A stretch of 64,000 nt of DNA, taken from assembly GCA_963771415.1 (NCBI GenBank), contig CAVYTI010000004.1, positions 822,723-886,722 of the forward strand, given 5' to 3'. Position 1 is the stretch's first letter. Every line of letters begins with the position of its first letter. The notes under the pieces were generated by a model, which was not told where the DNA came from, made no database searches, and worked only from the letters and a program-made list of their open reading frames with translations. This DNA comes from an uncultured Acidobacteriota bacterium (GTDB lineage Bacteria; Acidobacteriota; Vicinamibacteria; Vicinamibacterales; 2-12-FULL-66-21). Of the stretch, positions 12,195 to 45,726 are shown piece by piece. Both the position numbers and the translations under genes were made by a program.

Positions 12195-12543
12195 GGGATC
12201 GAGCCTTTGATTATACCCAGCCACAGGCCCCAGGCCTAGGGCTCCGGACCGCGGTTTGAACTGCCAACCTCCTGTCCTGCTTCATGTTAGGGGGCACTAT
12301 CACCCCTTCCACGCGGGTGACCCGCGTGTCTCCGGATTTCGAGTGCAAATCCGAGAAAGACGTACATCTTCTGCAGCTGAGTGTGCTAGTTCGGAGCACT
12401 GTGCGCTGGCATCGATAAAGCCGCCAATCGGCGATCTCTGATTTTCCGGGAAAAATCCCTGCGTTGGCGGCGCGAACCCCGCGAAATCGAGCGGCGTGGT
12501 TCTTGCGCTGGCGCGCCCAGGTACGGATGAGGAGCCCATACCG

Positions 12544-13504: not shown

Positions 13505-13522
13505 ACCGACCGGTCCGGTGAT

Positions 13523-14851: not shown

Positions 14852-14910
14852 GTTGCTCGTTCTTCCGGTCGCACGGCCCCACGACCAACCGCAGTAAAGT
14901 TGATCCGGCC

Positions 14911-16083: not shown

Positions 16084-16085
16084 TC

Positions 16086-17568: not shown

Positions 17569-17657
17569 GGGCGGCAGCGGCCGCCACATCTTAGCCCAGC
17601 ACTTCCTGGTGGCCGGCACCGAAAAGCTGACGGCCGCCTCAAAACTCGCTACTATTA

Positions 17658-29940: not shown

Positions 29941-32346
29941 TCGCCGAACTGCGCCAGGCGTGGCGGATGATGCTCAAGAGCCCGCTGCTGGCTGGCGTGG
30001 TGATCCTGTCGCTCGGCGTCGGGATCGGTGCCAATACGGTCGTCTTCTCGTGGATCGAGGCGGTCATCTTCAAGCCGATCCCCGGAGTGCGGGACGCCGG
30101 ATCCTTTCACCTGGTCGAGCCCCGTACCGACACCGGCATCTACATCGGCTCGTCCTGGCTCGAGTATCGGGACCTCGCCGACCGGCTGCAGACGATGACC
30201 GATCTGCTCGCGTTTCGGATGGCGCCGTTGTACGTCGGCGACTCCGGAAAGGTCGAGCGCGGCAACGGGCTCCTGGTGTCGGGCAACTACTTTTCGGGTC
30301 TCGGCCTGACACCAGCGCTCGGCCGTCTCCTGCGGCCGGAGGACGTCGATCATCAGGTCGGTCAGCCGGTGATGGTGATCTCCTACGACTACTGGCGGAC
30401 ACGGCTGGGTGGCTCGGCCGACGTGATCGGTCAGTCGATGCGTGTCAACGGCCAGACCTTGACGATCGTCGGCGTCGCGCCAGAGGGATTCCAGGGAACG
30501 ATCCTGAGACTGACCTTCGATATCTGGCTGCCGGCGCCGTTGTCACCATTGCTCTTCACCGGGTCGCGTGAGCTGGAAGACCGATCGGTTCGCAGCTACT
30601 CGATCATCGGTCGGCTCTCGGCGCACGCGAGCGAGGCAAGTGCGCAGGACGAAGTCGCCGGCGTCATGCGGGAGCTGGCGAGAACGTTCCCGAAGACCAA
30701 CACCACCGTGCAGGCGGACGTGCTGTCGTTCTGGCGGGCGCCACGCGGTCCGCAGCGTCTCCTCGCCACCTCGCTCGTCGTCCTCCAGGGCATCACGCTT
30801 CTGCTGCTGCTTGCGGTCTGCGGCAACACCGCCAATCTGCTGCTGGCGCGGGCGAGCGCCCGGCGCCAGGAAATGGCGGTTCGATCTGGCGCTCGGCGCG
30901 AAGCCGTGGCGCGTCGCGCAGCTGCTCCTGACCGAAAGCCTCGTGCTCGCCCTGTGTGGCGCGGCGCTCGGCGCCGGCATGGCGGTTTGGGGAACGCGGG
31001 CGTTGAATGCGTTGCCGCAGATGCGCGTGCGAGGGATCCCCATCTCGTTCCAGACCAACGTGGATGGAACGGGCCTGGCGGTCGCGATGCTGCTCGGCAT
31101 CGCCTGCGCGATCGTCTTCGGTCTGGCCCCGGCGCTGCAGCTCGCGCGTGTCGCTCCGCAGCACCTGCGCGCGAGCTCGAACACCGAGCCGCGCAGCCGG
31201 GTGCGGAACATCCTGATGGCAACCGAGGTGGCGCTCGCCGTGGTGGTGTTGCTGGTCGCGGGGCTGTTCTTTCGAAACTTCAACGCCACACGCGGCGTCG
31301 ATCCGGGATTCGTCCGCGATGGTGTACTGCTCGCCGAATACGATCTGACCGGCCGGCCGGTCGACGAGGCCGGCATGCGGCGCTTCGCCGCCATGCTGCT
31401 GGCGAAGCTGCGCGCTCTTCCCGCTGTTCGCGGTGCCGCAATCGCGTCCGCGGTGCCGCTCGACATCCATGGCCTGCCCACGCGCTTCATCAGCGTCGAA
31501 GGCCGGCCGCGCAACGAGGCCTCGCCGGACCAGGCGTTGGCCAATACGGTGACGCCCGGCTACTTCGAGGTCATGGGCATTCCGCTGCTGCAGGGGAAGG
31601 ATTTCGCCGATCTCGACGATCCTGCCGCACCCGCACAGGCCATCGTCAATGAGGAGTTCGTGCGTCGCTTCCTGGTCGGCGTGCAGCCGTTGGGTCGCCG
31701 CGTCGAGGCGCGTGGACGGAGCTATGTCATCGCGGCGGTCGCACGGAACTCGCTCTACAACGGGTTCGGCGAGCCGCCGCTGCCGATCGTGTACTTCTCG
31801 TACCGCGATCGGCCGGGCGTGATTGGCGAGGTGCACCTGCGCACGCGGGTGGGAAGCGAAACGGCGCTCGCGCCGGACCTCCGCCGGATCGTGCGGGAGC
31901 TGGATCCCGAGTTGCCGGTCTACGACATCCGGACGCTGAACGATCACATCGAGTCGAACCTGATCTTCCGTCGCGTGCCGGCGCGGATGTTCAGCGTGCT
32001 CGGGCCGCTGCTGCTCGTGCTCGCGGCTACGGGGATCTACGCGGTGGTCGCCTATACCGTGTCGCAGCGAACGAAAGAGATTGGCGTTCGGCTGGCACTG
32101 GGCGCGACCACGCGACGGGTCATCCTCGAGCACGTCGGTGAGAGCCTCGTGGTAGTCGGTGTCGGGGCGCTTGGCGGCTGGATGATCGCGTTCTTCGTGG
32201 CGATGGTCAGCTCGCCGGAACCGGTCGACGCCATCGTCTTCAGCGCCGTCCCGAGCGTGTTGATGCTGGTGGCCTGCCTTGCGTGCTGGCTGCCGGCCCG
32301 CCGGGCGGCGCTGGTCGATCCCGTCGTCGCCTTGCGGCAGGACTGA
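29937..32346 (+). pseudogene. ADOP-type duplicated MacB/FtsX orphan permease, interrupted by one extra base near 30885 (as sequenced)
   Basis: Track ORF 29937..31652 gives ...LLAVCGNTANLLLARASARRQEMAVR. Track ORF 30568..32346 (+1 frame) continues LALGAKPWRVAQLLLTESLVLAL... to ...WLPARRAALVDPVVALRQD. Confidence 0.88.
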
Positions 32347-32377: not shown

Positions 32378-33709
32378 CTACTTGAAGTACTTCCCCAGGA
32401 ACTGCAGGAACGCGGTCCAGTCGGCAGGCGTCGCCGCATGACCACCGGTGTGATAGTGCCAACCGAGATCTCCGGCGGTCACGGGCGTGTCGAGCGCCGG
32501 AAGGTCCGTGACGCCGAGATCCTTCTTGCCGAGTAGTCGATAGACCGGCCCGGCCGCGACCACCGCCTTGAACTCACCCACCGGGTCAGCCCACTGGTCC
32601 TGGGTGCCGCCGGTAATGAACACCGGTCGCGGCGCGCTCAACGCGATCAGCATGTGCGCATCGACCGGCATCTCGTTCCAGCGCCCCGCCCACTTCTGAA
32701 AATCGCCGGCGAACCAATAGGGAAAATTCTGCGCCATGTCATCGACCGTCTCGCCAAAATCGCGACGCGACAGGGCCGCTCCCATCTCTCCCGAACAGCT
32801 CGCGTAGACGGCGGCAATCCGCTCGTCGAGCGCAGACGCCCACAGCGCCGTCTTGCCGAGCCGCGAGTGCCCGAACAGCGCGATGTGCTGCTTGTCGACG
32901 GCCGGATCGGTCACGAGGTAATCGAGGATCCGGCTGACACCCCACGCCCAGGCGCCGATGGCCCCCCATTCCTCCGGGCCCGGTGCCGTCTTCCCCGATC
33001 CGAGCGTCGTACCGATAACCCCTTGATTGAACGTATCGATCTTGTCGGGCTGGATGTCCAGGTATCCGACCATCGCGTAGCCCCAGCCACGTTCGAGGAT
33101 CTCCGCCGCCACGGGGGGATCGGTACTCGGCGGAGGCGCCGCCCCGGCACGACCTGCCGTCGCTGGCGGAGGCGTCGAACTGCTGGCGAAATTCACGAGC
33201 AGGATGATTGGCGCCGGTTTGCCCGCGTGTGCCGGCGTGTACAACGTCACGTTGATGGTGGGCCCGTCCGCCGCCGTGCCAACTTTGCCGACAATCCGTT
33301 TCTTGACCGCCTTTCCGTCGCGGGCCGCCGGATCGGTTTCCGTCACCTGCCAGGTGACCTTCGGCGTGTTCGCCGGGATCGCACCGAAAATCGACGACTC
33401 GTACAGCTTGATGATCTCCGGTCGGCGCTCGCGCATCCACACCGCGGCGCTTCGAACCGGCTTGCCAGCCGACGACACCAGCGGGTCGGGGAGCGTGTAC
33501 GGATGCACCTTCTTCTCGTCGTAGTTCGAAACGTGACCCGTCTTCAGGGCCAGACGGATCGGATTGCCGTTGGGATCGGTCCCGAGGTTGGTGCTGCGTC
33601 CGGGACTTGAAGTCTGTGCCGTTGCCGGCGCTGGAGTGGCCGTCTGTTGAGCGGACGCCACGATTCCAGCCAGGCACACCACGGAGGTCAGGAAGGCACG
33701 GGTTTGCAT
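32378..33709 (-). CDS. secreted alpha/beta hydrolase, glucuronoyl-esterase (CE15)-like
   Basis: Signal peptide MQTRAFLTSVVCLAGIVASAQQ. ...IALFGHSRLGKTALWASALDERI is a G-x-S-R-x-GK nucleophile elbow as in CE15. GGAG lies 9 nt before ATG 33709. Confidence 0.7.
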   Translation of the reverse strand: MQTRAFLTSVVCLAGIVASAQQTATPAPATAQTSSPGRSTNLGTDPNGNPIRLALKTGHVSNYDEKKVHPYTLPDPLVSSAGKPVRSAAVWMRERRPEIIKLYESSIFGAIPANTPKVTWQVTETDPAARDGKAVKKRIVGKVGTAADGPTINVTLYTPAHAGKPAPIILLVNFASSSTPPPATAGRAGAAPPPSTDPPVAAEILERGWGYAMVGYLDIQPDKIDTFNQGVIGTTLGSGKTAPGPEEWGAIGAWAWGVSRILDYLVTDPAVDKQHIALFGHSRLGKTALWASALDERIAAVYASCSGEMGAALSRRDFGETVDDMAQNFPYWFAGDFQKWAGRWNEMPVDAHMLIALSAPRPVFITGGTQDQWADPVGEFKAVVAAGPVYRLLGKKDLGVTDLPALDTPVTAGDLGWHYHTGGHAATPADWTAFLQFLGKYFK

Positions 33710-33779
33710 ATGAAGTTTCTCCAACGGACCTGTCGATCGATCCACCGTCGCATCTTCTCAAATCGCTCGTCGTGAACGA

Positions 33780-34832
33780 CTACTTCAGCGCCGCCGGATC
33801 GATCACCACGTGCTTGATGCGCTCACGTTTCCACGTGTAGGTGACGTGTACGCGACCATCGCGCGCCTGGATCATCGCCGGATACGAATGCTCGCCGGGT
33901 GGCTCTTCGAGGACGACCGCCGATCGCCACGTGGTTCCGTCTTCCGATACGGCAATCTCCAGCTTGTCGCGCTCTGTTCTGCTCGGATTGTAGACCAGCA
34001 GGAATCGCCCGTCCGCCAGCCGCACGGCGTCGATGCCCGCGCTCGGATTGGCCAGGGACGTCGCGTGCATGTGCCCCCAGGTTTTGCCGCCGTCATCGGA
34101 CCGCGTGTCGGTGACGACGCCCTGTCGGCTGCGGCAGAGAATCTGCCACGCCGTGGGCGAATGCATCAGAATCGTTGGCTGGATCGCGCCGAACTCGGCC
34201 GGGTCGTTGAGCGGCGACGAGATCTCCCACGATTTGGGATCGGCGAGGCCGGCTGCGGTCCACTTGCCGCTGAACCGCTCCATGTGCGTCACCCAACCTT
34301 TGTCCTCCGTGCTGGAGCCGGCCAGCATCTCGCCGCCGGTCAACTCCACGGGCTTTGCCCGAATCGGCCCGAGGACACCTGGCGGGAGAGGGATTGCGTC
34401 GGACCACGTATGCCCCGCGTCGTTCGACGTGCGAGCCAGACCCCACCATTCGCTGGGGCTCGGTCCGACCTTGTAGAAGAGCACGAGCGGTCCATTGAAG
34501 GGCAGGAACAGCACCGGATTCCAGGACGGCTGCCGCGTGCCATTCGGCTGCACGCCGTTGGCGACCTCGACCGGCGTCGACCAGCCGCCCGCCTCCCGTC
34601 GTGAGACCCAGATGCCGACGTCGGGATTGCGCTCCTTGGTTCCACCGAACCACGCGGCCACCAGACCTTCGGGCGTCTCGACGATCGTGGAGGCGTGGGC
34701 GGACGCGAAGGGCGCGCGTTCAAAGATGTATTCGCTCTGGACGATCGTGGTCGGGCCAGTCTGCGGATAGCCAGCTTGCACCGCAATCGTCGTCAGCGCG
34801 ACGAGCGCGCAACCTCGCACATTCATGACCAC
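33780..34832 (-). CDS. BNR/Asp-box repeat exo-alpha-sialidase-like glycosidase (secreted)
   Basis: Signal peptide. Asp-boxes SNDAGHTWSD, SDDGGKTWG, SEDGTTW. ...ASAHASTIVETPEGLVAAWFGG... is typical of the sialidase-like beta-propeller family. Confidence 0.8.
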   Translation of the reverse strand: MVMNVRGCALVALTTIAVQAGYPQTGPTTIVQSEYIFERAPFASAHASTIVETPEGLVAAWFGGTKERNPDVGIWVSRREAGGWSTPVEVANGVQPNGTRQPSWNPVLFLPFNGPLVLFYKVGPSPSEWWGLARTSNDAGHTWSDAIPLPPGVLGPIRAKPVELTGGEMLAGSSTEDKGWVTHMERFSGKWTAAGLADPKSWEISSPLNDPAEFGAIQPTILMHSPTAWQILCRSRQGVVTDTRSDDGGKTWGHMHATSLANPSAGIDAVRLADGRFLLVYNPSRTERDKLEIAVSEDGTTWRSAVVLEEPPGEHSYPAMIQARDGRVHVTYTWKRERIKHVVIDPAALK

Positions 34833-34851
34833 GCGATCCCGAAAAAGCCGG

Positions 34852-35145
34852 CTACGCCTTGCCGAACGCGAGCCGCGCCCGCTCCGTCTGCAATTCGTGC
34901 AGGACGCGCATGACGTTATAGGCGGTCAACTCGACGAGAAGGGTCGTCACCTTCGCGTGCTGCTCATCGCTGAGATCGGGTTCCGCGGCCTTCATTGCCG
35001 CCACGAGACGTTGTTCCTGACCCTCGACTTCCGTCTTCGAGACAACGCCGTCGGCGAGTGCGCTCGTGAACGACTCGAGCTTGTTGATCCGTTCCTGAAT
35101 GATCGGGTGTTGCGCTTTATCGTCGAACCAGCTTGTGCGTGCCAC
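34852..35145 (-). CDS. 97-aa helical protein of unknown function, last gene of the PspA/AAA+ operon
   Basis: MARTSWFDDKAQHPIIQERINKLESFTSALADGVVSKTEVEGQEQRLVAAMKAAEPDLSDEQHAKVTTLLVELTAYNVMRVLHEL. It starts 9 nt after the AAA+ stop. No family recognised. Confidence 0.6.
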   Translation of the reverse strand: MARTSWFDDKAQHPIIQERINKLESFTSALADGVVSKTEVEGQEQRLVAAMKAAEPDLSDEQHAKVTTLLVELTAYNVMRVLHELQTERARLAFGKA

Positions 35146-35154
35146 GGGGACCTC

Positions 35155-36924
35155 CTACAACTCTTTCACCAGTTGCTTGAGCGCGGTCAGGCGCGCCTGC
35201 AGGGCACCGCGCGCTCCCTCGCCGGTTGTTTTCTCGAGAATCGATGGCGGCAGGAACTGGCGATCCGTGCACTCGAGGATGGCCGCCGTCTCCTGTAACT
35301 CGCGCTCGAGACCTTGCGTGGACGGCATGAATTGCACGACCACGTCGGCGAGCGACTCGCGGGTGATGTGATCGGCGCCGGCGAGCAGCGATGCGCGCCA
35401 CGCCCGCCCGACCATGCCTTCGATGTCCGCCCCCGACAGATGGCCGCGCTGCGGAATCGCCGGCACATCCTCGAGAGCCACACGTGAGCCGAGCTTCTTG
35501 GCCAGGATCACGAACATCTGACGGATCTCCGCCTCGTCGGTCGGATAGAACAGCGGAATGTGGACCTCGGCGCGTCCTTGCCGCTTCAAGTCGATCGGCA
35601 GCAGATCGGGACGCGCTGTCAGCAGCATCCACAGGATGCGTCCGCGGTACTGCGTATCCCCCATCTGCGCGGCAATCATGGCGAAGACGCGGCTCGAGGT
35701 TCCCGAGTCGCCGTCCTGCTCGCGACTGCCCAGCGCAGCGTCCGCTTCGTCCACGACGACGACGACCGGACCCATCGCCCGCAGGACCGCCAGCACGCGC
35801 TCCAGATTTCCTTCCGTCTCCCCGACATACTTCGAGCGGAAGTTCTTGAGAACGACGCAGGGGACGCCGATCTCGCCGCTGACGCACTGGGCGAGGAACG
35901 ACTTGCCAGTGCCGACCGGTCCGCAGAGCAGATACCCCATCGGCAGGCTATCGAGCGCACCTCGTTTGAGCAACGCCGCATCCTCGCGCAGTCGTGCTTT
36001 CGCCGCCTCATGGCCGACAACCGTATCGAGGGTCCACCGCGGTTCGATGAACTCGAGCAGGCCGTGACACTGGCGCTCGAGCAGCCGCTTCTTCAGCGCG
36101 CGGAACACGGTGGCGTCGAGCCGCTTGCCGCTCTCGCGCGCCGACTGGACGAGCACGTTGAGGTCGGTGAGCGAGATGCCCGCGGTCAGCGTCGCCAGCT
36201 GCGAAGCGTCGTAATCGGAAAAGTCCTTGAGCGCCGTCGTGCCGCACGACGCGGTGATGAATGTTTGGCGCGCCTTCTCGTCAGGCAGCGGTACCTCGAT
36301 TGTCGCGACGTGCGGGTTGCCGGTGAGCCGATCGCTCAGGTCGGCGAGCTTTTCGTCCACCATGACGAACGCCATGTTCAACCGCTTCACATGCGGGCTC
36401 ATCGCCCAGTTCAGCATCGTCACCAGCTGCGACGAGGCCTGCATGTTCAGGCGACCTGGCTCGCCGGAGGGAAACAGGTACGACGCCTGATCCATGATCA
36501 CCGCGAGGCTGAGCCGATCTTCCTCCGCCGCCATGATGTTGTTGCGCACGAAGCGGTCGAGCAGCGCGAAGGTGGCGGCCGGATCCTTGGGAAGGGCGCT
36601 GAGATCACCCACCTTCTTGGTGGCGAGCGCGACCATGTCCTTGAGCCGCTGCTCGTCCCTTCCGGCGAAGGCGCGCAGGCCGCGCCCGAGGTCGTAATGC
36701 AGCACCAGCGACCAGCGGCCGAACAGCTGTTCCGCCAGGAACTCCGCCAGCACGCCGTAGCGCGATTCGTCGTCATCGACGCGGAAGAGATCGTAGGTGT
36801 TGCCGTTCAGGACGAACGCGGCGGTCGTGCCCGAGAAGTACAGGTCCGCCAGCTGCGCTGACCAGGCTGGAAGCCATGCCGGCAGGTTCGCCGGACGCCG
36901 ATGCAGCTGCGAATCAAGCGTCAT
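35155..36924 (-). CDS. classical-clade AAA+ ATPase (Vps4/FtsH/Cdc48-like ATPase module) with an N-terminal region of about 320 aa of unknown function
   Basis: Walker A LLCGPVGTGKSFLA, pore loop FRSKYVGETEGNLERV, Walker B PVVVVVDEADAAL, SRH / Arg finger LLTARPDLLPIDLKRQGRAEVHIPLFYPTDEAE. 11-nt overlap with the upstream gene. Confidence 0.88.
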   Translation of the reverse strand: MTLDSQLHRRPANLPAWLPAWSAQLADLYFSGTTAAFVLNGNTYDLFRVDDDESRYGVLAEFLAEQLFGRWSLVLHYDLGRGLRAFAGRDEQRLKDMVALATKKVGDLSALPKDPAATFALLDRFVRNNIMAAEEDRLSLAVIMDQASYLFPSGEPGRLNMQASSQLVTMLNWAMSPHVKRLNMAFVMVDEKLADLSDRLTGNPHVATIEVPLPDEKARQTFITASCGTTALKDFSDYDASQLATLTAGISLTDLNVLVQSARESGKRLDATVFRALKKRLLERQCHGLLEFIEPRWTLDTVVGHEAAKARLREDAALLKRGALDSLPMGYLLCGPVGTGKSFLAQCVSGEIGVPCVVLKNFRSKYVGETEGNLERVLAVLRAMGPVVVVVDEADAALGSREQDGDSGTSSRVFAMIAAQMGDTQYRGRILWMLLTARPDLLPIDLKRQGRAEVHIPLFYPTDEAEIRQMFVILAKKLGSRVALEDVPAIPQRGHLSGADIEGMVGRAWRASLLAGADHITRESLADVVVQFMPSTQGLERELQETAAILECTDRQFLPPSILEKTTGEGARGALQARLTALKQLVKEL

Positions 36925-37834
36925 GGCGGAGCACCTCGCGCAGGTCGGTCTCGAGGATGGCCGGCGGCTCCTGCAGTTGGTCGGCGAGCCCGGTCAGATG
37001 CTGCAGCTCACTGACCGCCTTTTCCGTCTGCCTCATGCTTTCGGCAGCAGAATCCACCTGGCTGCTCAGGAAATCGGGATCCTGACGATTGACGGCGGTC
37101 TCGGCGAGCGCCTGGATCTTACCCTCGATGCGATCGAGCTCAATCGAAACGAAGTCGGCGTTCTTCTTGGCACGACCGAAGTTGTCGAGCCTGAGCTCGC
37201 CCATCGCGATGCTGTCCTGCAGCGATCGCACGACCCGCTCGTCGCCGCCGCTGCCCTGCGCCGCCGTCAGGCTCTTGTGCAGCTCCTCGAGCCGCGAGGC
37301 AATCTCCTTTTCGTTCATGGTCTGGAGAAAGCGGTCGAGCGCCGCGCGCGACAGCAGCAGCCGGAGAAACAGCCAGAGCAGGCGATCGAGCCCCGGCGTC
37401 CTGGCCTCCTCGCCGGCAGTCTGGTCGCCGGCCGCGCCCCGAACGCCGGCAGCTATCCCGCGCATTTCGAGGCAGCGCGCGTGAAGCCTCTCGAATCGCA
37501 GCCTCGAGTCGCGTGGCAGGCCGCTCAGCATCGACACCAGCGACACCGGCGGCGCCTGCGGCTGTCCTTCCGTGCCGGAAGCAGAAGTCATCGCATGAAC
37601 CTTCGCGTCGATCGCCGCTCGGAACCGAGGAATCGACACCAGTCCGGCGAGATACGTGAGCTCGGCCGCAGCGACGAGCGGCAGCAGCACGGCGGCGACA
37701 GGCGTCAACGCGGCAGCCGCGACGCCGCCGCCGAACAGCAGCAGGTTCCACCGGAACAGAAATGCCTCTTTGATGTAGTCGGGCATCCCGCCCGACCGCG
37801 GGGGTCCTGACGGATCCGGAGCCGGACTAGTCAT
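36914..37834 (-). CDS. membrane protein (TM hairpin) with a long cytoplasmic coiled-coil; unknown function
   Basis: [42 protein letters not shown] forms two TM helices, followed by heptad-rich helices (...[17 protein letters not shown]..., ...[18 protein letters not shown]...). It overlaps both neighbours (8 nt and 11 nt). ATG 37786 is an alternative start. Confidence 0.65.
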
Positions 37835-38654
37835 CGCCGGCCCGGGTGGAGGTCGCCAAGGTGTCGATCAGATCGCGGATCTCGAAGACACGCTCCATGA
37901 ACGCCGGGTCGCGCTGCATCTCCTTCGGCGGACGATCCGAGCCGGGGACCGCCATCTCCTTGAGAATCGTTCCGGGCGCGCCGGAAAACACGTAGACGCG
38001 ATCGCCGAGGTAGACCGCCTCCTCGATCGAGTGGGTGACGAAGAACACTGTCGCCTGCGCCTCTTTCCACAGGTCGACCAGCAAGGCCTGCATGTGCAGG
38101 CGGGTCGTCGGATCGAGCGCGCCGAACGGCTCGTCCATCAGGATGATTCGTGGCGACAGGATCAAGGTCCGCGCGATGGCGACGCGCTGGCGCATCCCAC
38201 CCGACAGCTCGTTGGGATATTTCGTCGCATCGCGCTTGACGTCGAGCCCCACCTTCGCGATCCATTCCCGCGCACGCTCGCGGCGATCGGCCGAGGCGAC
38301 GCCGCGGCACTCGAGGCCGAAGGCGACGTTGTCTTCGACGGTCCGGTTGTCGAACGAGGTGTAGTCCTGGAACACCATGCTTCGATCCGAGCTCGGCGGC
38401 CCCACCGGCTTCTCGCCGACGAGCACCGTGCCGGTCGTCGGCGGATGGTGTGGACGCAACCCGGCAATCAGCCTGAGCACGGTCGATTTGCCGCACCCCG
38501 ACGGCCCGAGAATCGCGATGAACTCCCCTTTGTTGGGAAGGTCCTTCACCGCGAACGTCACGTCGCGGATCACCGTCAGGTCGCCGAACTTCTTCGTGAC
38601 GTGATCGAACTGGACGATGTTCGGGAGATCAGTCGCGGCGTCGCTCATCGTCAT
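37827..38654 (-). CDS. ABC transporter ATP-binding protein (NitT/TauT-type importer)
   Basis: [18 protein letters not shown] (Walker A), [15 protein letters not shown] (signature), [13 protein letters not shown] (Walker B), FVTHSIEEA (H-loop). Start at ATG 38654 (MTMSDAATD), in an ATGA overlap with the permease stop. The upstream part of track ORF 37827..39575 is shadow. Confidence 0.9.
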
Positions 38655-39472
38655 TCTTCCACGAGGCGATGCGGGAACAGACCACGCTGGAACCAGAACA
38701 GCACGCGATCGATGCCGTACGCGAGCAGCCCGATAATGATCAGGATCAGGATGATGTGCTCCGACAGCCCGCGGCGCTGGCTGGCCATCAGCAGGTAGCC
38801 CAGGCCGTGCTGCGCGTTGATCAGCTCGGCCAGCATGATGTAGCCGAACGCCAGGCCGAACAGGTGTCGCAGGCTGTTGTAGATGTCGGGCAGGGCGAGC
38901 GCGACGAGGACCTTCCGCACGATCTGGAACGATGTCGCGCCGAGCGTCTGCGCCGCCTCGACGTAGCGGTCGGGTACGTTGACCACGGCCGAGACCGCGT
39001 CGGAGTAGACGAACGGCACGCAGGCAATGAAGATGAACATCACCTTCTGCGTTTCGTCGATGCCGAACCACAGGATCGTCAGCGGAATCAACGCGGCGAC
39101 GGGCAGGTTGCGGCCGAAAAGCGCCAGCGGGGCGCCGGCGGCCTCGAGGACGCGCCACGATCCGGCGGCGATGCCAAGGGGAACGCCGACGAGCGCGGCC
39201 AGCCCGAAACCAACCAGCACGCGCTTCAGCGTCGCGGCGATGCTCTGCAGCAGCGCCCGCTCGTTGAGCAGGCTCGGGAAGCTGCGGAGCACTTCGCCGG
39301 GGCTCGGGAGGATCACCGGGGAGATCAGGCGGTCCTCCGAACCGAGACCGGAGGTGACGAACCACCAGACGAGGACAATGACCCCCATCGCAATGGCCCC
39401 GACGAGTCGCCGCGTCATCGGCGGCGGCACGATTCGGATGGCCAGCAGCGACGACTGCGAGTCGGTCGGCAT
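38651..39472 (-). CDS. ABC transporter permease (NitT/TauT family, BPD-type)
   Basis: 273 aa with 6 TM helices. EAA-like loop ...[28 protein letters not shown]... It starts at the base directly after the stop of the SBP gene. Confidence 0.9.
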
Positions 39473-41203
39473 CTACTTCGACGCCGGCGCCGCTTCCGCC
39501 GGGTAGACCTTGACCTCTACCCGTCGATTCTTTGCGTTGTTGTCCGGATCGGACGCATCCGCGGGCCGGTCCCATCCCATCCCGGCGGTCGAGAACTGAT
39601 TGGGTTGCAACGATGAGAACTTCCGCAGGATCGCTTCCTTCACCGAGTTGGCACGATTGAGCGACAGCTCCTGGACCAGGCTCTTCGGCACCGAGGACTT
39701 CATCGAACCGTCGGTGTGCCCCTCGATCACGATGCGGGCCGCGCCGTACTGCCCGGCGAGCTTGCCGATCTCCTCGACGACGAATCCGACGTTCGGGTCG
39801 TAGAGCTCCTCGACTTCCTTGCTATCGGCCGTGCGAGTGATCTTCTTGTTCAGGTCCCAGGAATTCGGGAAGAAATGAATGACGACCGTCTTGGTGAGGA
39901 TCTCGTCCTTCTCACCCTGCACCGTACCGGCGCTCGCCGGTGCGAACTGGATGTCGTACTCATTCTTCTGGCTGGCGTATTTCGGCTCGGACCCCAGCTT
40001 CTGGATGACGGAAAAGTCCATCACCTGATCGAACGGCGTCTGCTCGGTGACCGCGTTGATCTTCTTGTAGAGGAAATACGCGGTCGTCCAGGTGCGCTCG
40101 AAGCTGGTCGGGTTGTTCTGGTTCAGGAAGAAGTCGCGGTTCTCGGCGTAGTTGGTCGAGTGGGCGTCGCCGAGCATCCCGAGCGCGTCGCTCTCGGGAA
40201 TCGAGTAGCCCGCGGCCATCAGCTTGGCGACCTTCTGCTTGCCGTCCTGCGCTTTCAGATCCTGCATCGCGTCGAAGATTCCGCGGGTGATGCCCTCGAC
40301 GACGTCCGGGTTGTCCTTGGCGAAATCGGCGCGCGCGAACCAGACGTCGGCAATGAGCTTGTTGGCGGTGGAGGTCGTGACCAGCAGCCGGTTGCCTTTG
40401 ACCTTCTCGAGGTTGTAGATATCGGGGGCCCAGCTGACGCACCCGGCAAGGCTCTTGTCGGCGTTGAACGCGGCCGCGGCCTGGAAGGCGTCCTGCGTGA
40501 ACTTGAATTCGACTTCGGCGGGCTGCACACCGGCGTTGATCAACGCGTTGAGCACGAAGAAATGCGACGGCGAGTTCTGCGCCAGCACGATCGTCTTGCC
40601 GCGCAGATCCGACATCGTCTTGATACTGTCCCGGACGACAATGCCGTCGCCGCCGTTGGACCAGTCGACCTGTTGATACACGCGCGGCATGACGCGTGAG
40701 TCCTTGCGGAGGCCTTCGAGGAACAGCGGCAGCATGTCGAGCGTCGCCCAGCCGACGTGAAGGTTGCCCGCGGCGTAGGCGTCGCGCATCGCGATCGGGT
40801 CGTCGATCAGCACGAGCTCGAGCTTGAAATCCTTGCCGCCCGGCGTCTTCCACACCTTGCCCGGCTTGAAGCCGTTGTTGGCGTAGATGATCGGGCCCCA
40901 TCCTGCCCAGACGTTGATCGCGAAGCGGACCGTCCGATCCGCCATCGGTTTGTAGCTGGAGATGCCCTTGACTTCGGGGAGGCGTGAGGCCGCGACGTAG
41001 TTGTATTCCTTGACCGTGGTGATGCCGGAGCTGTCAGGAGCTTCGGCGCCGGCCTTCATCTGCTTCATCTCGTCCGCGGTGAACTGGCCCGATTGACCCT
41101 TGGGCCCGATGGCGCCATAGCGCCACAGGGCGAGGCCGACGAGGCCGACCACCACGAACAAAACCGCGACGTAGAACGCGGGTCTGGGGCTTCCGTTCGC
41201 CAT
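39473..41203 (-). CDS. TM-anchored ABC substrate-binding protein (NMT1/SsuA/TauA-like fold) fused to a C-terminal OmpA-like peptidoglycan-binding domain
   Basis: N-terminal TM helix [20 protein letters not shown]. The central 350 aa is SBP-like ([21 protein letters not shown]..., [20 protein letters not shown]...). The C-terminus is ...[11 protein letters not shown]...[14 protein letters not shown]...GMGWDRP...NRRVEVKVY, the OmpA/MotB/Pal signature. Confidence 0.85.
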
Positions 41204-41217
41204 GGGATGAACGCTCC

Positions 41218-41973
41218 TCAGCTCTGCTTCTGTGTGGTTTTCTCAACCGCCGGCCCGAGATCCTTCGCCGTCTGCGACACCGGCGTCGTCTCCGGCGACT
41301 TCAGTCCGAGCTCGACCTCGAAGTCGTTGAGCGCCTGCTCGGCGAGCTGCGAGTGCATGCGCTCTTCCGCGTTGATCTCGGCGATGCCCTTCTGCGAGAG
41401 ATCGGCCGCGACGCGAACCTTGCCGCGGTTCTGATCGATCTTCTGCTGGATCACGGTTTCGATTTCGCCGAAGTCGGTCGTCAGGTTCATGTCGAACGTT
41501 TCCGACAGCTTGGCGATTTCCGCTTCCGCCGCGCTCATCTTCAGCTCGGCATCGTATTTCTGGATCCTTTGCCGCAGCTCGATCAGCTTTTCGTTCGCGT
41601 GCTGAATCTTCTTGAGGTTGTTGCCGTAGGCGGTCTCGTGCATCTGGAGCTGGTTCTCGTTGCTGGCCAGCTCCTCTTTCGCTTTCTGCAGCTCGAGGGC
41701 GAACTTGGCGGCGGTGGTGCGGTCGCCGGCTTTCAGGTAGGCCTTGGTTTCGGCTTCGAGTTGCTGCGCGTGCGAGCGATTCGCGGCGACCTGACGGGTG
41801 ACCCGCTCGACGAGCCCGCGATATTGCTCCAACCCGGTGCGCCCTTCCTTGAGCTGTTCGACGGCGCGGTCGTACTCATAGCGCATCTGCGCCACGGGAT
41901 CGGCCTCCCAGAAGACGTTGGCGACCTTGTTGAGTTGCGCGACGAAGGCGGACCAGAACTTGTGGAAGATCAC
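41218..41973 (-). CDS. pspA: PspA/IM30/Vipp1 family protein (bacterial ESCRT-III superfamily)
   Basis: MIFHKFWSAFVAQLNKVANVFWEADPVAQMRYEYDRAVEQLKEGRTGLEQYRGLVERVTRQ... is the characteristic N-terminal amphipathic helix plus long coiled-coil hairpin of PspA/IM30. GTG start with AAGGAGAGG upstream. Its TGA is followed immediately by the GGAG of the next gene. Confidence 0.85.
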   Translation of the reverse strand: MIFHKFWSAFVAQLNKVANVFWEADPVAQMRYEYDRAVEQLKEGRTGLEQYRGLVERVTRQVAANRSHAQQLEAETKAYLKAGDRTTAAKFALELQKAKEELASNENQLQMHETAYGNNLKKIQHANEKLIELRQRIQKYDAELKMSAAEAEIAKLSETFDMNLTTDFGEIETVIQQKIDQNRGKVRVAADLSQKGIAEINAEERMHSQLAEQALNDFEVELGLKSPETTPVSQTAKDLGPAVEKTTQKQS

Positions 41974-42130
41974 CAGACCTCTCCTTTTTGCTTGCCTCGA
42001 TCGGGCCGTGCCGCGGCCGCCGCGGCCCGTCCCTTTCCTCTACTTACGCTGGATGCGCCCCCCGATGTTCGCCGATTCCAGCGTCTTCGGAACCTGCTGA
42101 CTCGACGACATTTCCACGTCGCCCACGGGC

Positions 42131-42913
42131 TCAGCGGCTCTTGCCGGGTTCCCGCTCGGCGCCCGGCGCCTCGGCAAGAATCTTGCCCTGGTAAATTCCG
42201 TCGAGCGCCGTACGCAATTCCGCCCCCGTGCCGGCGCCAATCACGTCGCCGCCGACGTTCTTGAGAAACGCGAACTTCTCGGGACTGGTATCGAACGCGA
42301 CGAAGTAGACCTGCACGGCCCCCTGGCTCTTACGGTAGATTTCCTCGGCCACATTGTCCGGACTGCGGCCGCTCGTATTCTCTCCGTCGGTCACCACGAG
42401 GAGATATTTGCGAAACACCCCGGCTCGGTACAGATCGGGGCGGGCTTCCCGCATCGCTTCGCCGATGGCGGTGCCGCCGCCCGGCCGCGGCAGGTTCGCG
42501 AGCGCGGCTTTGATCGCCGTCCGATCGTACGGCTGGATCGATCGCAGCGTCCGCACGCCGCTGGAAAAACTGTAGACGCCGATCTTGACGGGAAAATCCG
42601 GCCGTTTGGCCACGAAGGCGTCGGTCGCGTCGAGCATGTTCTCGAGCGCCTCCTGGGCAACGACGTATTTCGGTCGCGAGTCGCCAGGCGCCTTGTCGCG
42701 CATCGACCCCGACGTGTCCACCAGGATGGCGACGGCCGCGCCGAGGCCCTCTTCGACCTCGGACTGATAGGGCGCCGCCTGATCGGGTTCGGGCGCGGAG
42801 CGCGTCTCCGCGGACCGGCCGCCTGGCCGCGCTTTGCATGACAGCAGCCACGGGACCAGTGCAACGACGGCCAGGGTGGCGCACACCCGAACGGACAGCG
42901 CTCCAGCTTTCAT
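42131..42913 (-). CDS. von Willebrand factor type A (vWA) domain lipoprotein
   Basis: Lipobox LLSCK. MIDAS motif VAILVDTSGSM. ...GGGTAIGEAM..., ...LLVVTDGENTSG... ATGA overlap with the upstream isomerase gene. Confidence 0.88.
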   Translation of the reverse strand: MKAGALSVRVCATLAVVALVPWLLSCKARPGGRSAETRSAPEPDQAAPYQSEVEEGLGAAVAILVDTSGSMRDKAPGDSRPKYVVAQEALENMLDATDAFVAKRPDFPVKIGVYSFSSGVRTLRSIQPYDRTAIKAALANLPRPGGGTAIGEAMREARPDLYRAGVFRKYLLVVTDGENTSGRSPDNVAEEIYRKSQGAVQVYFVAFDTSPEKFAFLKNVGGDVIGAGTGAELRTALDGIYQGKILAEAPGAEREPGKSR

Positions 42914-43821
42914 GCGGTCACTGGTGTCGGGGGCAGTCTATCAAAATGCTCCTCGCGCTTCCGCTTGAGGAAGTCGACCGACCCGCGAAGCTCCTCGAGG
43001 CCGTTCATGCCGTCCTCGACCGAAATCCAGCCGCTGAAGCCGACTTCGGCGAGCAGCCGGAAGATCGCGTCGTAATCGTTGAGCCCTTTGCCGGTCTCGC
43101 CATGCCGCAGCGTCGCGGCGTACCCCGCCGATCCGTCGGCCGCGCGCAGGTCATCGAGGGTCGATCCCGGCGCCAGGAACCGATCCGACGCATGCATCGT
43201 CACGACCCGACGGCGGACCCGCTCCAGAAAGCGAATCGGATCGTAGCCCCCCACTGTCGCGTTCGACGGGTCGTACTGGACGCCGAACGACGGCGAATCA
43301 ATCCGGTCGACGATCTCGAGGAAGATGTCCTCCGGCTGCGCAAACTCGGGATAACGCCACAAGCCGTCCTTGTAGTGGTTCTCCATGCACAGGGTCACGG
43401 CGCGCCGTTCCGCGTAGTCGAGCGACTGGCGCAAGCACTCCACAGTCCGATCGATACCCTCCTGGCGGGTCAGGCCCGGGTACCGCTGTCCGCTGAGCGT
43501 GCGGCAGAAGCGGGCGCCGAGACGAACCGTGAGATCGATGGCGGCCTTCTGACGATCGACCTGCAGGCGCCGTTCCTCCGCGTCGGGGTGGGTGAAGTCG
43601 GGTGAAAAGCACAGCATCGACGTCACTTGCCCCGTCTCGTCCAGGACGCGCGCGATCGGATCGACATCGGCTGGCGTGAAGCTCCTGAAAAAGCCGTCGT
43701 AGTGCTCGACGCCGTCGGCGCCGAGGGTCGCGGCATCGCGGAGCCAGGCCGCGAACGGCATGCGGCCGTCGACGAGCTCGTCGAAGTAGCACTTGGGAAA
43801 GACGCTGATCCGCGGCGGCAT
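42910..43821 (-). CDS. sugar phosphate isomerase/epimerase (xylose isomerase-like TIM barrel; UlaE/SgbU-like)
   Basis: ...LGADGVEHYD..., ...LCMENHY..., ...VQYDPSNA..., ...GWISVEDG... are the conserved metal-binding E/D/H/E pattern of AP_endonuc_2 barrels. Confidence 0.8.
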   Translation of the reverse strand: MPPRISVFPKCYFDELVDGRMPFAAWLRDAATLGADGVEHYDGFFRSFTPADVDPIARVLDETGQVTSMLCFSPDFTHPDAEERRLQVDRQKAAIDLTVRLGARFCRTLSGQRYPGLTRQEGIDRTVECLRQSLDYAERRAVTLCMENHYKDGLWRYPEFAQPEDIFLEIVDRIDSPSFGVQYDPSNATVGGYDPIRFLERVRRRVVTMHASDRFLAPGSTLDDLRAADGSAGYAATLRHGETGKGLNDYDAIFRLLAEVGFSGWISVEDGMNGLEELRGSVDFLKRKREEHFDRLPPTPVTA

Positions 43822-43824
43822 GGA

Positions 43825-44592
43825 CTAGAAGTTCGATGGGGCACCGACGGGATATTGCTCGAGATCCATCACGGTGCCGGTCACGAGGGCGCTGGCGTCC
43901 GAGGCGAAGTAGGCGGCGGCCAGCGCGATGTCGTGTGGCGAGAGCAGCCGCCCGAACGGCCGCGTCGCCACCGCCTTCGGCAGCCAGTCCGGATCGTGCT
44001 CGTCTTCACGTTTGACGCGCTCTTCCCCTTCGGTCAGCGTCCAGCCGACGTTGATCTGGTTGACGCGGATCTTGTGGCGGTTCAGTGTCGCGGCGGCGTT
44101 GCGCGTCAGCGTCATGAGGCCGCCCTTCGAAACCGAGTAGGGCCCGAGCTTCGGCTCGCCGACATAGGCATTGACCGAGCCGATGTTCAGGATGGAGCCG
44201 CCGCCCCGCGTCTTCATCGATTTCACCGCCTCCTGCAGGCAGAGGAACGGCGCACGCAGGTTGATGTGCATGATCCTGTCCCACAACTCGACCGGGACGT
44301 CTTCGAGGTAGGCGCGGGCGGTGGTCGCCGCGTTGTTCACCAGGATGTCGATGCCGCCGTAGTGCTCGATCGTGAAGCGGACGATGCGCCGGCAGGCTTC
44401 GACGTCGGCGAGGTCGCCCGCAACCGCCGCAGCCGACCACCCGTGCTCCGACAATCGCGTCGCGACGGCGACCGCCTCTGCCTCGTCCAGACCATGTACG
44501 ACGACGCGGGCGCCGAGCGACGCGAAGAGCTCGGCAATCCCGCGGCCGATGCCCGACGTCGAGCCGGTGATCAGGGCGATCTTGGTGTTCAT
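43825..44592 (-). CDS. SDR family oxidoreductase
   Basis: MNTKIALITGSTSGIGRGIA (TGxxxGxG), NNAA, S...YSVSK catalytic triad (YxxxK). Start at ATG 44592. The N-terminal extension in track ORF 43825..44664 is not protein-like. Confidence 0.88.
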   Translation of the reverse strand: MNTKIALITGSTSGIGRGIAELFASLGARVVVHGLDEAEAVAVATRLSEHGWSAAAVAGDLADVEACRRIVRFTIEHYGGIDILVNNAATTARAYLEDVPVELWDRIMHINLRAPFLCLQEAVKSMKTRGGGSILNIGSVNAYVGEPKLGPYSVSKGGLMTLTRNAAATLNRHKIRVNQINVGWTLTEGEERVKREDEHDPDWLPKAVATRPFGRLLSPHDIALAAAYFASDASALVTGTVMDLEQYPVGAPSNF

Positions 44593-44695
44593 GGCGGTTG
44601 GCGGTGGGCGGCTGGGTGGATAGCGGTTGGCGGTTGATGGATGTGGTTGCCGGTCATCCGACATCCGTCATCCACCATTCCGTCAACCCTCCGGG
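44593..44695. repeat. low-complexity GGT/GGTTG-rich intergenic tract followed by CATCC words
   Basis: GGCGGTTGGCGGTGGGCGGCTGGGTGGATAGCGGTTGGCGGTTGATGGATGTGGTTGCC, then GGTCATCCGACATCCGTCATCCACCATTCCGTCAACCC. It lies between the Zn-ADH and SDR genes. Confidence 0.5.
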
Positions 44696-45726
44696 ACAAT
44701 GACCGACTTGATGACGCGACGTTCGTGCATGGCGTCGAATGCTGCCCGCCAGCCTTCGAGCGGGGCGCGAAGGCCGACGATTTCTTCGGGCAGCGTCGTT
44801 CCTCGATCGAGCAGATGGATGACGCGCTCCCAGATCGGGTAGTTGTGGCTGAACGATCCCTGCAGCCGCAGATTGCGCAACACCAGCGGGTTGGGATCGA
44901 TGGGAATGATTTGGGGAGACCAGCCGACCTTGGTGACCTGCCCGTCCGGTCGCGCGATCTGCAGCGCCACCTGCAGCGCGTCGCTCGTGCCGGTGGCGTC
45001 GCACACCAGGTCGGCGCCGATCGGCGACAGGCCGCGAACCACGTCCTCCAGGCTCTCCTTCTCGATGTCCACGGTTCTGGCCGCACCGAGCCGGCGCGCC
45101 GTCTGCAATCGCGCCGCGTCCGCCGACAGGCCGGCCACAATCAGCGGATCGGCCCCAGCCAGGGCCGCCATTCGCGCGCACAGCAGGCCGATCGGACCGG
45201 GCCCGAGGACGACCACGGTCTCCCCCGGCCGAATCGTGGAGTTCACGCACATCGCGTTGTAGGACACGGCGTGGGGCTCCGATAAGCAGGCCAGATCGAA
45301 CGGCAGAGTATCTGGAATCCGGTGCAGGCATCTTGCCGGCACCCGGACCCAGCTCGCCATCGCCCCGTCGACGCCGTAGCCGAATCCCTTTCGCGCCGGA
45401 CAGAGGTTGTATCGTCCGGTCCGGCAGAGCACGCACTCGCCGCAGATGTGCGCTGCCGTCTCGCAGACGACCCGGTCGCCTTCCTTGAAGCCGCGTACGG
45501 CGCGCCCGACCCGCGCGATCGTGCCGCCGAACTCGTGGCCGAGCACGACCGGGATGTTCACCGGCCAGGAATGTGTGTTCCACGCCTGGTGCACGTCCGA
45601 TCCGCACACCGACACGGCGCCGACCTTGAGCAGCGCGTCATCGTCGCCAATGTCCGGAATGGCGAGCTCGCGCAACTCCACAGCGCCCGGCTGCAGCGCG
45701 TAGTGAACGAGAGCGGGCATTTTCAT
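44683..45726 (-). CDS. zinc-dependent alcohol/polyol dehydrogenase (MDR family)
   Basis: MKMPALVHYALQPGAVELRELAIP...VCGSDVHQAW...GHEFGG...CGECVLCRTGRYNLC...VVVLGPGPIGLL. Start at ATG 45726. The 105-aa Arg-rich extension in the track ORF is rejected. Confidence 0.88.
   Translation of the reverse strand: MKMPALVHYALQPGAVELRELAIPDIGDDDALLKVGAVSVCGSDVHQAWNTHSWPVNIPVVLGHEFGGTIARVGRAVRGFKEGDRVVCETAAHICGECVLCRTGRYNLCPARKGFGYGVDGAMASWVRVPARCLHRIPDTLPFDLACLSEPHAVSYNAMCVNSTIRPGETVVVLGPGPIGLLCARMAALAGADPLIVAGLSADAARLQTARRLGAARTVDIEKESLEDVVRGLSPIGADLVCDATGTSDALQVALQIARPDGQVTKVGWSPQIIPIDPNPLVLRNLRLQGSFSHNYPIWERVIHLLDRGTTLPEEIVGLRAPLEGWRAAFDAMHERRVIKSVIVPEG

Follow-up and report, generated by a model that had tools for sequence, protein, structure and literature searches.

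How the polymers of the bacterial members of the ESCRT-III superfamily, PspA and Vipp1, are disassembled is an open question. According to a 2025 review a Vps4-like ATPase appears to be absent in bacteria (PMC7619361), and a 2024 survey found complete ESCRT systems confined to archaea and eukaryotes (PMC10936438). The question is raised again by a cluster of genes located in a 64,000-nt stretch of DNA, referred to as the window, from an uncultured Acidobacteriota bacterium (contig CAVYTI010000004.1, positions 822,723 to 886,722). In this cluster the gene for a PspA/IM30-family protein is followed by genes coding for a transmembrane (TM)-anchored solute-binding protein fused to an OmpA domain (SBP::OmpA), the permease and the ATPase of an ATP-binding cassette (ABC) importer, a 306-aa helical protein with two TM segments, and an AAA+ ATPase. 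The gene for a von Willebrand factor A (vWA) lipoprotein precedes this group and the gene for a 97-aa protein follows it. An earlier note, made from the sequence, had proposed a new envelope-maintenance module in which a PspA polymer is remodelled by its own Vps4-like AAA+ motor. The comparative analysis described here places the cluster in a probable envelope module that occurs in several phyla and is centred on the 306-aa protein. PspA and a threading-type AAA+ belong to one conserved unit in it, and there are culturable genera among the soil phyla that carry it. With this operon family the question of disassembly becomes directly testable. The finding is real and biologically coherent, and the cluster is a Vicinamibacteria-like copy of an operon type known already from published genome comparisons.

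Conservation of the gene order

Related loci were collected by a scan with the AAA+ protein in which each species was represented by one genome, and the best 80 of 554 relatives were compared. These 80 loci come from Vicinamibacteria-like Acidobacteriota, Solibacteraceae/Bryobacteraceae, Gemmatimonadota including Longimicrobia, Anaeromyxobacter (Myxococcota), one Deltaproteobacteria metagenome-assembled genome (MAG) and Planctomycetota. They share a six-gene core with the order PspA-like protein, TM-anchored SBP::OmpA, permease, ABC ATPase, 306-aa protein and AAA+. Counting for each gene only those loci with a flank long enough to show it, the same order was found for the PspA-like gene in 55 of 57 loci, and for the genes of SBP::OmpA (58/58), the permease (66/66), the ABC ATPase (68/68) and the 306-aa protein (75/75) in every informative locus. 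The expectation of the earlier note that these genes co-occur and stay syntenic was therefore strongly confirmed, and in several phyla, across which the identity of the AAA+ proteins is 64-92%. The vWA gene is located upstream of the PspA-like gene in 37 of the 55 informative loci, and the 97-aa gene follows the AAA+ gene in 47 of 75, with none among the 22 from Gemmatimonadota. On the other hand, the flanking metabolic genes are common only to the two closest genomes (L001 and L006). Because the core is syntenic while these flanking genes are so limited, the conserved unit extends from PspA through AAA+, and the vWA and 97-aa genes are frequent accessories.

The tandem AAA+ ATPase and the 97-aa protein

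The C-terminal AAA cassette of the AAA+ protein is complete. It belongs to PF00004 and includes the Walker A motif GPVGTGK[ST], the pore loop KYVGETE, which is of the aromatic-hydrophobic-Gly kind, a DEAD Walker B motif, and the second region of homology (SRH) RPDLLP[IL]D[IL]KRQGR with its arginine fingers, i.e. the features of the classical AAA clade. The motifs quoted in the earlier note (GPVGTGKS, KYVGETE, VVVVDEAD and TARPDLLPIDLKRQGR) are present in the translation. In 26 sequences from several phyla the key residues of the motifs, the DEAD of Walker B and the arginine fingers of the SRH are invariant, and the remaining motif positions are nearly so. When the AAA module was placed by ranking its hidden Markov model scores, the best NCBIfam matches were CDC48 (75.6 bits) and PAN (75.4 bits), ahead of FtsH (57), IteA (53.5) and CdvC (48.5), and no CbbX or SpoVK family was found among the NCBIfam matches, in agreement with the classical-clade placement proposed before. 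Comparison with solved structures gave p97, VAT, Cdc48, AFG2 and Rix7 at 1e-30 to 1e-22 and fidgetin-like 1 at 4e-17, and the closest solved relatives of the AAA+ are the substrate-threading unfoldases p97, VAT and Cdc48 (about 1e-30). The description of the protein as Vps4-like is acceptable as a functional analogy, since it may work like Vps4, but not as a family assignment: Pfam detected neither an MIT nor a Vps4_C domain, CdvC scored 48.5 bits versus 75.6 for CDC48, and the protein has a tandem AAA arrangement with a degenerate first copy. To judge from its sequence, it is not a member of the Vps4 family, and it seems to be devoid of a Cdc48 N-domain as well.

The evidence for the first AAA copy comes from the N-terminal 300 residues, which taken alone match no Pfam family. 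A 25-sequence profile of this region matched 74 PDB chains, and among the matches listed all are classical AAA ATPases, with p97 (7e-4), paraplegin, FtsH, Vps4, Rix7 and Msp1 as the structures. Nearly all of the matches lie at residues ~206-290, most of them at 210-269, corresponding to the last strand and the lid, where the pattern is ...IEVPLPDE..R..F...LA.LTAGISL.DL..LVQSA; in three members the N-terminal region also touches AAA_lid_3 of Pfam. The position of the Walker A motif is occupied by FVLHGNTYD, which has no P-loop, and a Walker-B-like FVLIDE strand is kept. An hhalign comparison between the N-terminal and the C-terminal half was not significant. Because of the lid homology to classical AAA proteins and the presence of HGNTYD in place of Walker A, the protein is a tandem AAA in which the first copy is inactive and the second, of the classical type, is active. 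It differs from the type II organization of Cdc48/p97 in that the first copy lacks Walker A and no N-domain family was detected, and only ~35 residues are located ahead of the first AAA-like domain. A second profile search for homologues recovered the same close relatives only. The lid of the second copy is followed by a conserved helical C-terminal extension of ~60 residues (~530-589; nucleotides 35155-35340, minus strand) with the pattern FMPSTQGLERELQE.AAI.ECTD..FLP...GGR..LQ.RL, to which nothing corresponds in the classical AAA families that were matched.

Searches of Pfam, NCBIfam, PADLOC and the PDB with the 97-aa protein gave no match. Its gene travels with the AAA+ gene, and is found directly after it even in two rearranged loci (L085 and L098, described below).

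The PspA-like protein

The match of the PspA-like protein to PF04012 covers model positions 1-188 of 220 and is just over the cut-off (Table 1), and the same family was matched by all of 26 orthologues from several phyla, the best at 1.7e-13. As in E. coli PspA, an N-terminal amphipathic helix is followed by an (E)ADP motif. Neither phmmer nor a 26-sequence profile matched the protein to solved PspA or Vipp1 chains, and when E. coli PspA was compared by hhalign, the alignment was confined to the N-terminal helix and was not significant. Since direct similarity to the solved PspA and Vipp1 structures is lacking, the assignment is that of Pfam, and the protein represents a divergent PspA/IM30 subfamily. 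Conservation is clearly higher in this subfamily than in its partners: it is 47-64% identical in distant variant loci in which the 306-aa homologue is only 30-40% identical. Its C-terminal tail, FEVELGLKSPETTP...K-LGP, is strongly conserved. The tail was considered as a marker of an adjacent AAA+ gene and rejected as such: judged within the gene neighbourhoods, it is present in all loci with AAA+ and lost in L081 and L083, and it is kept in the AAA+-less L096 and L099.

The 306-aa membrane protein

In the earlier note the 306-aa protein was treated as a bystander. This view has to be abandoned, as its family is the most persistent component of the system, found in 75 of 75 loci, and the protein is the hub of the system. 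It has one long hydrophobic stretch (residues 31-68), which the confident AlphaFold2 (AF2) model, with a mean predicted local distance difference test (pLDDT) score of 82.8, resolves into two hydrophobic helices at ~28-67 that form a TM hairpin with a very short loop. In the model the hairpin is followed by an amphipathic helix and then by an all-helical domain composed of a long helical hairpin (147-194/199-250) and two short helices. Because basic residues flank the TM hairpin on both sides, both termini should be cytoplasmic according to the positive-inside rule. The C-terminal tail is conserved as GLADQLxEPPAIL (GL...EPPAIL), and GL...EPPxL is kept even at ~30% identity. Clustered at 50% identity, the family comprised 814 clusters in an exhaustive search at E <= 0.001 and 428 at E <= 1e-10, and members down to ~30% identity keep the whole architecture. 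An attempt to find further loci by means of a very distant 306-aa homologue gave nothing. The tails of the 306-aa protein and of the PspA-like protein have a common spacing, ExAxxx(hydrophobic)xxx[TL]GL followed by prolines, that is not statistically significant.

The corresponding protein is labelled 'TM + divergent Snf7' in the operon listing of Ravi et al. 2024 (PMC11237479). We searched for such a relationship by several approaches. Among the 25 most frequently matched Pfam families there was no Snf7 or PspA match, either with 24 close members of the 306-aa family (E <= 10) or with 78 diverse ones (E <= 1), and profiles of two depths, the deeper one of 78 sequences, matched no ESCRT-III chain in the PDB. 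In hhalign comparisons the 306-aa profile gave a probability of 0.1 against the PspA-like profile, and was at noise level against E. coli PspA as well. Foldseek analysis of the AF2 model against the PDB revealed nothing below E = 0.26; the top matches are generic membrane-binding helical bundles (AhlC, the eisosome proteins Lsp1/Pil1, SNX BAR), and the ESCRT-III protein CdvB (9s9k_B) ranks 27th with E = 1.4. The helix pattern of the model, a long hairpin plus two short helices, is compatible with the ESCRT-III fold. With Pfam, PDB profiles, hhalign and Foldseek all negative or non-significant, the Snf7 label could not be reproduced, although by its helix pattern the protein may still be related to ESCRT-III.

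The solute-binding protein, the ABC importer and the vWA lipoprotein

The SBP::OmpA protein is closest among solved structures to TauA (7e-13) and, in its C-terminal part, to the peptidoglycan-binding domain of Omp38 (4.8e-11). Its hydrophobic anchor encompasses residues 4-33. The OmpA domain (PF00691, residues 479-560) keeps the GHTD ... LSxxRA ... NRRVE residues and is predicted to bind peptidoglycan. The permease has an EAA-type loop, ...LALP, and SaoP and TauC as its best NCBIfam matches; in the ABC ATPase the Walker A, signature and Walker B motifs are intact. Together with the SBP and the BPD_transp_1 assignment of the permease these features are those of a type I ABC importer of the NitT/TauT-like kind. 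SBP, permease and ATPase are all best matched by families of the TauABC/SsuABC/SaoP type, at scores far below the equivalog cut-offs, for which reason the substrate cannot be read from the family matches. In the vWA protein the signal sequence closes with a lipobox-like LLSC, and the DxSxS ... T ... D residues of its metal ion-dependent adhesion site are found in VDTSGSM, GGGTAIG and VVTDGEN.

A second kind of anchored SBP was found in the variant loci, in which it is fused to a vWA domain. Such SBP::vWA fusions are located in L081 (8309-9997), L084 (7287-9014), L088 (2211-3935) and L096 (1526-3262), with no ABC genes nearby. In L081, L084 and L088 the fusion gene lies directly upstream of a 306-aa-family gene, and in L096 none was detected downstream. 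This architecture was not found in the text of Ravi et al. 2024 or in the supplementary passages searched (PMC11237479). SBP::OmpA and SBP::vWA proteins share an anchor signature, approximately KPKxxF[YW][IV]xxxLxxxGLxx[FY]xLxR, even though the SBPs that carry it are of two otherwise unrelated classes, NMT1/TauA-like in the OmpA fusions and SBP_bac_11/SBP_bac_8 in the vWA fusions. A conserved single-pass anchor of this sort implies a specific partner helix in the membrane, for which the TM hairpin of the 306-aa protein would be the obvious candidate.

Variant loci

The neighbourhoods of distant members of the 306-aa family, and of relatives of the PspA proteins encoded in them, revealed a modular system. 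The full canonical order is present in Deltaproteobacteria and Myxococcota MAGs (L095 and L102). The genes for SBP::OmpA, permease, ATPase and 306-aa homologue are preceded by PspA in L083, which has no AAA+, and by vWA in L087, which has neither PspA nor AAA+; L091 has SBP, permease, ATPase and 306-aa homologue together with NifU. ABC genes are missing from L085 (PspA, AAA+, 97-aa homologue, 306-aa homologue) and from L098 of the Gemmataceae (PspA, AAA+, 97-aa homologue). The order in L089 is PspA (apparently disrupted), AAA+, SBP::OmpA, permease, ATPase and 306-aa homologue, and in L090 it is ABC ATPase, 306-aa homologue and AAA+, on a contig that starts inside the ABC ATPase gene. The simplest loci are those of the Desulfobacterales (L081/L093: PspA, an SBP_bac_11::vWA fusion and a 306-aa homologue), L084 and L088 (SBP::vWA and 306-aa homologue), L096 (PspA and SBP::vWA), L086 (306-aa homologue alone) and L099 (PspA alone).

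Three conclusions can be drawn from these arrangements. No association is kept more persistently than that of the 306-aa protein with a TM-anchored SBP, and it does not depend on the ABC genes; therefore the SBP is probably more than a feeder of the importer. The vWA domain, which in the window belongs to a lipoprotein of its own, forms one protein with the SBP in other loci, from which it follows by a Rosetta-stone argument that the two probably act together in the periplasm. Finally, since PspA and AAA+ are adjacent without ABC genes and the 97-aa gene goes with AAA+, a PspA/AAA+/97-aa sub-module is supported. The pairing of PspA with AAA+ put forward in the earlier note stands to the extent that the two genes are adjacent even where ABC genes are missing (L085, L098), but not as a fixed association, as PspA is found without an adjacent AAA+ in L081 and L083. 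The module is therefore separable, and AAA+ is not an obligatory partner in cis.

Two of these loci have further features. The L089 variant follows, within positions 1-5050, a run of small open reading frames (ORFs) and a gene with a PhageMetallopep domain, so that a phage or prophage context is possible; its PspA-like gene was called as two pieces of 80 and 164 aa, which suggests a frameshift. In L081 the genes directly downstream of the 306-aa homologue (10921-19241) encode a type I restriction-modification system as well as a Schlafen/AlbA_2-like protein, the single case of a defence-island neighbourhood.

Proposed function of the module

The best explanation of the results, to which we assign a probability of about one half, is that the 306-aa protein is an adaptor that anchors a PspA polymer, which is recycled by the AAA+ and coupled to a periplasmic SBP module. 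The sequences show the gene content with its domain identities, catalytic motifs that are intact, a conserved synteny, modular variants and a common anchor signature; from these we infer the physical contacts, PspA as the substrate of the AAA+, the direction of signalling and the import of a solute as follows. In the cytoplasm the 306-aa protein would use its helical domain to anchor or nucleate a polymer of the dedicated PspA subfamily, a branch of the ESCRT-III superfamily. A ring of the tandem AAA+, active through its pore-loop-bearing second copy, would pull out PspA subunits by threading and in this way disassemble or recycle the polymer. Elsewhere this task falls to Vps4 or Cdc48. The 97-aa protein is probably a cofactor of the AAA+. 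On the periplasmic side, the SBP, held in the membrane by its signature anchor and tied to peptidoglycan through the OmpA domain, would feed the type I ABC importer, and together with the vWA lipoprotein it may couple the status of the envelope or of a ligand to the 306-aa protein. Ravi et al. 2024 (PMC11237479) had arrived at the same view of the function independently, and we count this in its favor.

Several observations weigh against this explanation. The AAA+ gene is absent from the neighbourhood of the PspA/306-aa loci L081, L083, L096 and L099, and PspA of this subfamily may not need an AAA+; nor does the conserved PspA tail track the presence of AAA+ cleanly. As PspA rods are weak ATPases in themselves, they do not strictly need a motor (PMC11746142). 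For the 306-aa protein an ESCRT-III/Snf7 character was not reproducible, and the AF2 model of the full AAA+ is poor (pLDDT 51.8, from a shallow alignment) and was left out of the fold search. In the literature no experimental follow-up on this operon type was found.

Alternatively, the main target of the AAA+ could be the 306-aa protein or else the ABC/SBP complex, which it would extract, reset or subject to quality control, with PspA stabilizing the nearby membrane and not being a substrate. The AAA+ gene is directly adjoined by the 306-aa gene, with an overlap of 11 nt; the 306-aa gene is present in 75/75 loci, its product keeps the GL...EPPxL motif in members only ~30% identical, and AAA+ relatives such as Msp1 and Cdc48 do extract membrane proteins. 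The order of L090 would also fit, in which the AAA+ gene follows those of the ABC ATPase and the 306-aa homologue and any PspA gene upstream would be out of view beyond the contig end. However, in L085 and L098 the AAA+ gene comes directly after PspA and not after the 306-aa homologue, and loci without AAA+ still have the C-terminal motif in their 306-aa protein, for which reasons we regard this alternative as unlikely.

A defence function, in which the cluster would be an anti-phage or conflict system responding to envelope damage during infection, is very unlikely. The AAA domain matches the PADLOC IetA models (8.6e-18), besides IteA of NCBIfam, but this match is limited to the generic AAA core, and an IetS-like protease partner is missing; and while vWA proteins are common in conflict systems, and L081 and L089 are located beside a restriction-modification system with a Schlafen-like gene and in a phage-like context, respectively, the AAA+ identities across phyla are high (64-92%) and the neighbours in the window are metabolic genes, not a defence island. 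That the ABC genes encode an ordinary sulfonate/taurine-type nutrient importer whose adjacency to PspA and AAA+ has no functional meaning, as the TauABC/SsuABC-type matches and the metabolic flanking genes in this genome could suggest, is the least probable of the readings and hardly tenable, given a gene order kept across several phyla, an SBP that is unusual in being TM-anchored and OmpA-fused, an anchor signature found also on SBP::vWA proteins beside the 306-aa family without any ABC genes, and scores that are all far below the curated equivalog cut-offs.

The adaptor and recycling model may be extended, tentatively and with some doubt, to the whole 306-aa family. This protein may define a widespread unnamed trans-envelope system in which a periplasmic SBP module, held by the signature anchor and tied to peptidoglycan through OmpA or to a vWA adhesion domain, gates by way of the membrane protein the assembly of a dedicated PspA polymer. 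In the full version of the system the polymer would be recycled by a Cdc48-like tandem AAA+ with its 97-aa cofactor. If true, bacteria would have a genuine equivalent of the ESCRT-III/Vps4 cycle, controlled by a periplasmic ligand or by the cell wall. The comparison indicates groupings of PspA with AAA+ and the 97-aa protein, of the SBP anchor with the 306-aa protein, and of vWA with SBP, and supplies defined motifs for mutation.

Comparison with known systems

The operon listed by Ravi et al. 2024 (mSystems 9:e00847-23, PMC11237479; preprint 2020), obtained from genome comparisons and exemplified by OGG56892.1 of Candidatus Handelsmanbacteria, has the same six-gene order: PspA, a protein with signal/TM, SBP and OmpA, permease, ABC ATPase, a TM helical protein, and an AAA+ given as an inactive AAA plus an active AAA. 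In the passages on this operon an ATP-dependent membrane remodelling comparable to that by Snf7/Vps4 is proposed, in which OmpA binds peptidoglycan and the SBP binds the transported solute. Since exactly this gene set and the Vps4-like remodelling idea were thus described, the novelty claimed in the earlier note is lost, and the value of the present analysis lies in sharper hypotheses and not in discovery. The operon type is known but little noticed. The copy described here differs in that it is from a Vicinamibacteria-like acidobacterium and in having the vWA gene upstream and the 97-aa gene downstream, neither of which is in the paper's listing, and the 'divergent Snf7' label of the TM protein was not reproduced. 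What is added is the quantified synteny, the evidence for a degenerate first AAA copy, the negative Snf7 result, the hub role and family size of the 306-aa protein, the vWA and 97-aa accessories, the SBP::vWA fusions and the shared anchor signature.

The ESCRT-III/Vps4 systems (CdvB/CdvC, Snf7/Vps4) resemble the cluster in having an ESCRT-III-superfamily gene beside that of a classical AAA+ whose pore loop is aromatic and whose SRH has two arginines, a combination that would fit the extraction of subunits by threading. In contrast to Vps4, the AAA+ has no MIT, Vps4_C or beta-domain and two AAA copies, the first inactive, instead of one, and its presumed polymer partner is of the PspA type, not of the Snf7 type. 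The periplasmic SBP/OmpA/vWA proteins and the ABC importer have no counterpart in those systems, the nearest being the ProX gene found in some archaeal ESCRT loci (PMC10936438).

With Cdc48/p97/VAT the AAA+ shares the best sequence matches, two tandem AAA-like domains and an N-terminal lid that aligns with p97 lids, but its first copy lacks Walker A, no double-psi barrel N-domain was detected, and its conserved C-terminal extension is distinct. The Psp and Lia systems (pspF-pspABCDE, liaIH, pspA-ydjGHI) also combine a PspA/IM30 effector with a small integral membrane partner that is a possible recruiter; PspBC and LiaI recruit the PspA-type effector. The cluster differs from them by the absence of PspB, PspC, LiaI, Toastrack and a PspF-type bacterial enhancer-binding protein, by an AAA+ of the classical unfoldase type and not a sigma-54 activator, and by the ABC importer and peptidoglycan tether in the unit.

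Layout and surroundings of the locus

The eight minus-strand ORFs reported in the earlier note were found in the sequence with the same coordinates and spacings, and Pfam and NCBIfam agreed with its domain calls for six of the eight proteins, the 306-aa and 97-aa proteins matching no family (Table 1).

Table 1. Features of the gene cluster, in order of transcription (window coordinates)
Feature	Coordinates	Strand	Matches and remarks
vWA lipoprotein, 260 aa	42131..42913	-	VWA_2 7.5e-14, VWA 3.3e-12; frequent accessory directly upstream of the PspA-like gene
157-nt intergenic gap	41974..42130	-	largest gap in the run; GGAGAGG ahead of GTG start
PspA/IM30-family protein, 251 aa	41218..41973	-	PF04012 35.1 bits, cut-off 33.9
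TM-anchored TauA/SsuA-like SBP::OmpA, 576 aa	39473..41203	-	NMT1 5.3e-07, OmpA 2.1e-10
ABC importer permease, TauC/SsuC/NrtB-like, 273 aa	38651..39472	-	BPD_transp_1 4.9e-18
ABC ATPase, 275 aa	37827..38654	-	ABC_tran 7.7e-29; taurine-type ATPase NF008421 3.2e-59
306-aa inner-membrane protein, predicted TM hairpin plus cytoplasmic all-helical domain	36914..37834	-	AF2 model; no Pfam family
Tandem classical AAA+ ATPase, 589 aa	35155..36924	-	PF00004 at residues 331-457, 1.4e-22
97-aa helical protein, accessory gene	34852..35145	-	no Pfam family
Terminator-like hairpin and T-run over the stop codon of the 97-aa gene	34848..34865	-	terminator scan

After the gap that separates vWA and PspA, the junctions are PspA/SBP 14 nt, with TGA followed by GGAG, SBP/permease 0 nt, permease/ABC ATPase -4 (ATGA), ABC ATPase/306-aa -8, 306-aa/AAA+ -11, and AAA+/97-aa 9 nt; three of them have overlapping start and stop codons. 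The dense packing noticed earlier thus applies to the eight genes, but it does not mark the boundaries of the unit: the co-directional run extends both ways, with a xylose-isomerase-like gene that overlaps the vWA start by 4 nt upstream and a BNR gene 19 nt downstream of the 97-aa gene. Because the run exceeds eight genes, packing alone cannot delimit the unit, which is delimited by comparative synteny. The 157-nt gap may be the likeliest promoter site for the PspA-to-97-aa unit, a role that we infer only, since the promoter scan found no sigma-70 consensus site in it. The hairpin at the end of the 97-aa gene could be the 3' end of the unit; this is weak evidence, as the number of terminator-like sites in the region (9, against a shuffled expectation of 7.2) is not above chance. 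Promoter and terminator scans of the region as a whole gave nothing above chance, and an Rfam scan of the window (1-64000) found no family at the gathering score. The G+C content across the window is uniformly 62-68%, and the cluster region is no compositional island.

Upstream, the run continues on the minus strand (42910-46400) with the xylose-isomerase-like TIM barrel gene, a short-chain dehydrogenase/reductase, a Zn-dependent alcohol dehydrogenase and a HUMPS/OMP-decarboxylase-like gene; these sugar-metabolism genes are not part of the system, as they are shared only with L001 and L006. Beyond them, on the opposite strand (46875-48143, plus), lies a gene for a PilT-like type II/IV secretion ATPase (T2SSE, 1.1e-47). 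Directly downstream of the 97-aa gene (32378-34832, minus) are genes for a sialidase-like BNR_2 protein (3.3e-77) and a glucuronyl-esterase-like protein, which are carbohydrate-active and unrelated to the module. Next to these (29937-32346, plus) a duplicated permease of the MacB_PCD/FtsX type, similar to the acidobacterial ADOP permeases, is split over two overlapping frames with a break near 30860-30900. The first frame is sensible to ...LLLARASARRQEMAVR and the second resumes at ...LALGAKPWRVAQLLLTESL; the split reading frames therefore suggest a frameshift, due either to a pseudogene or to a sequencing error.

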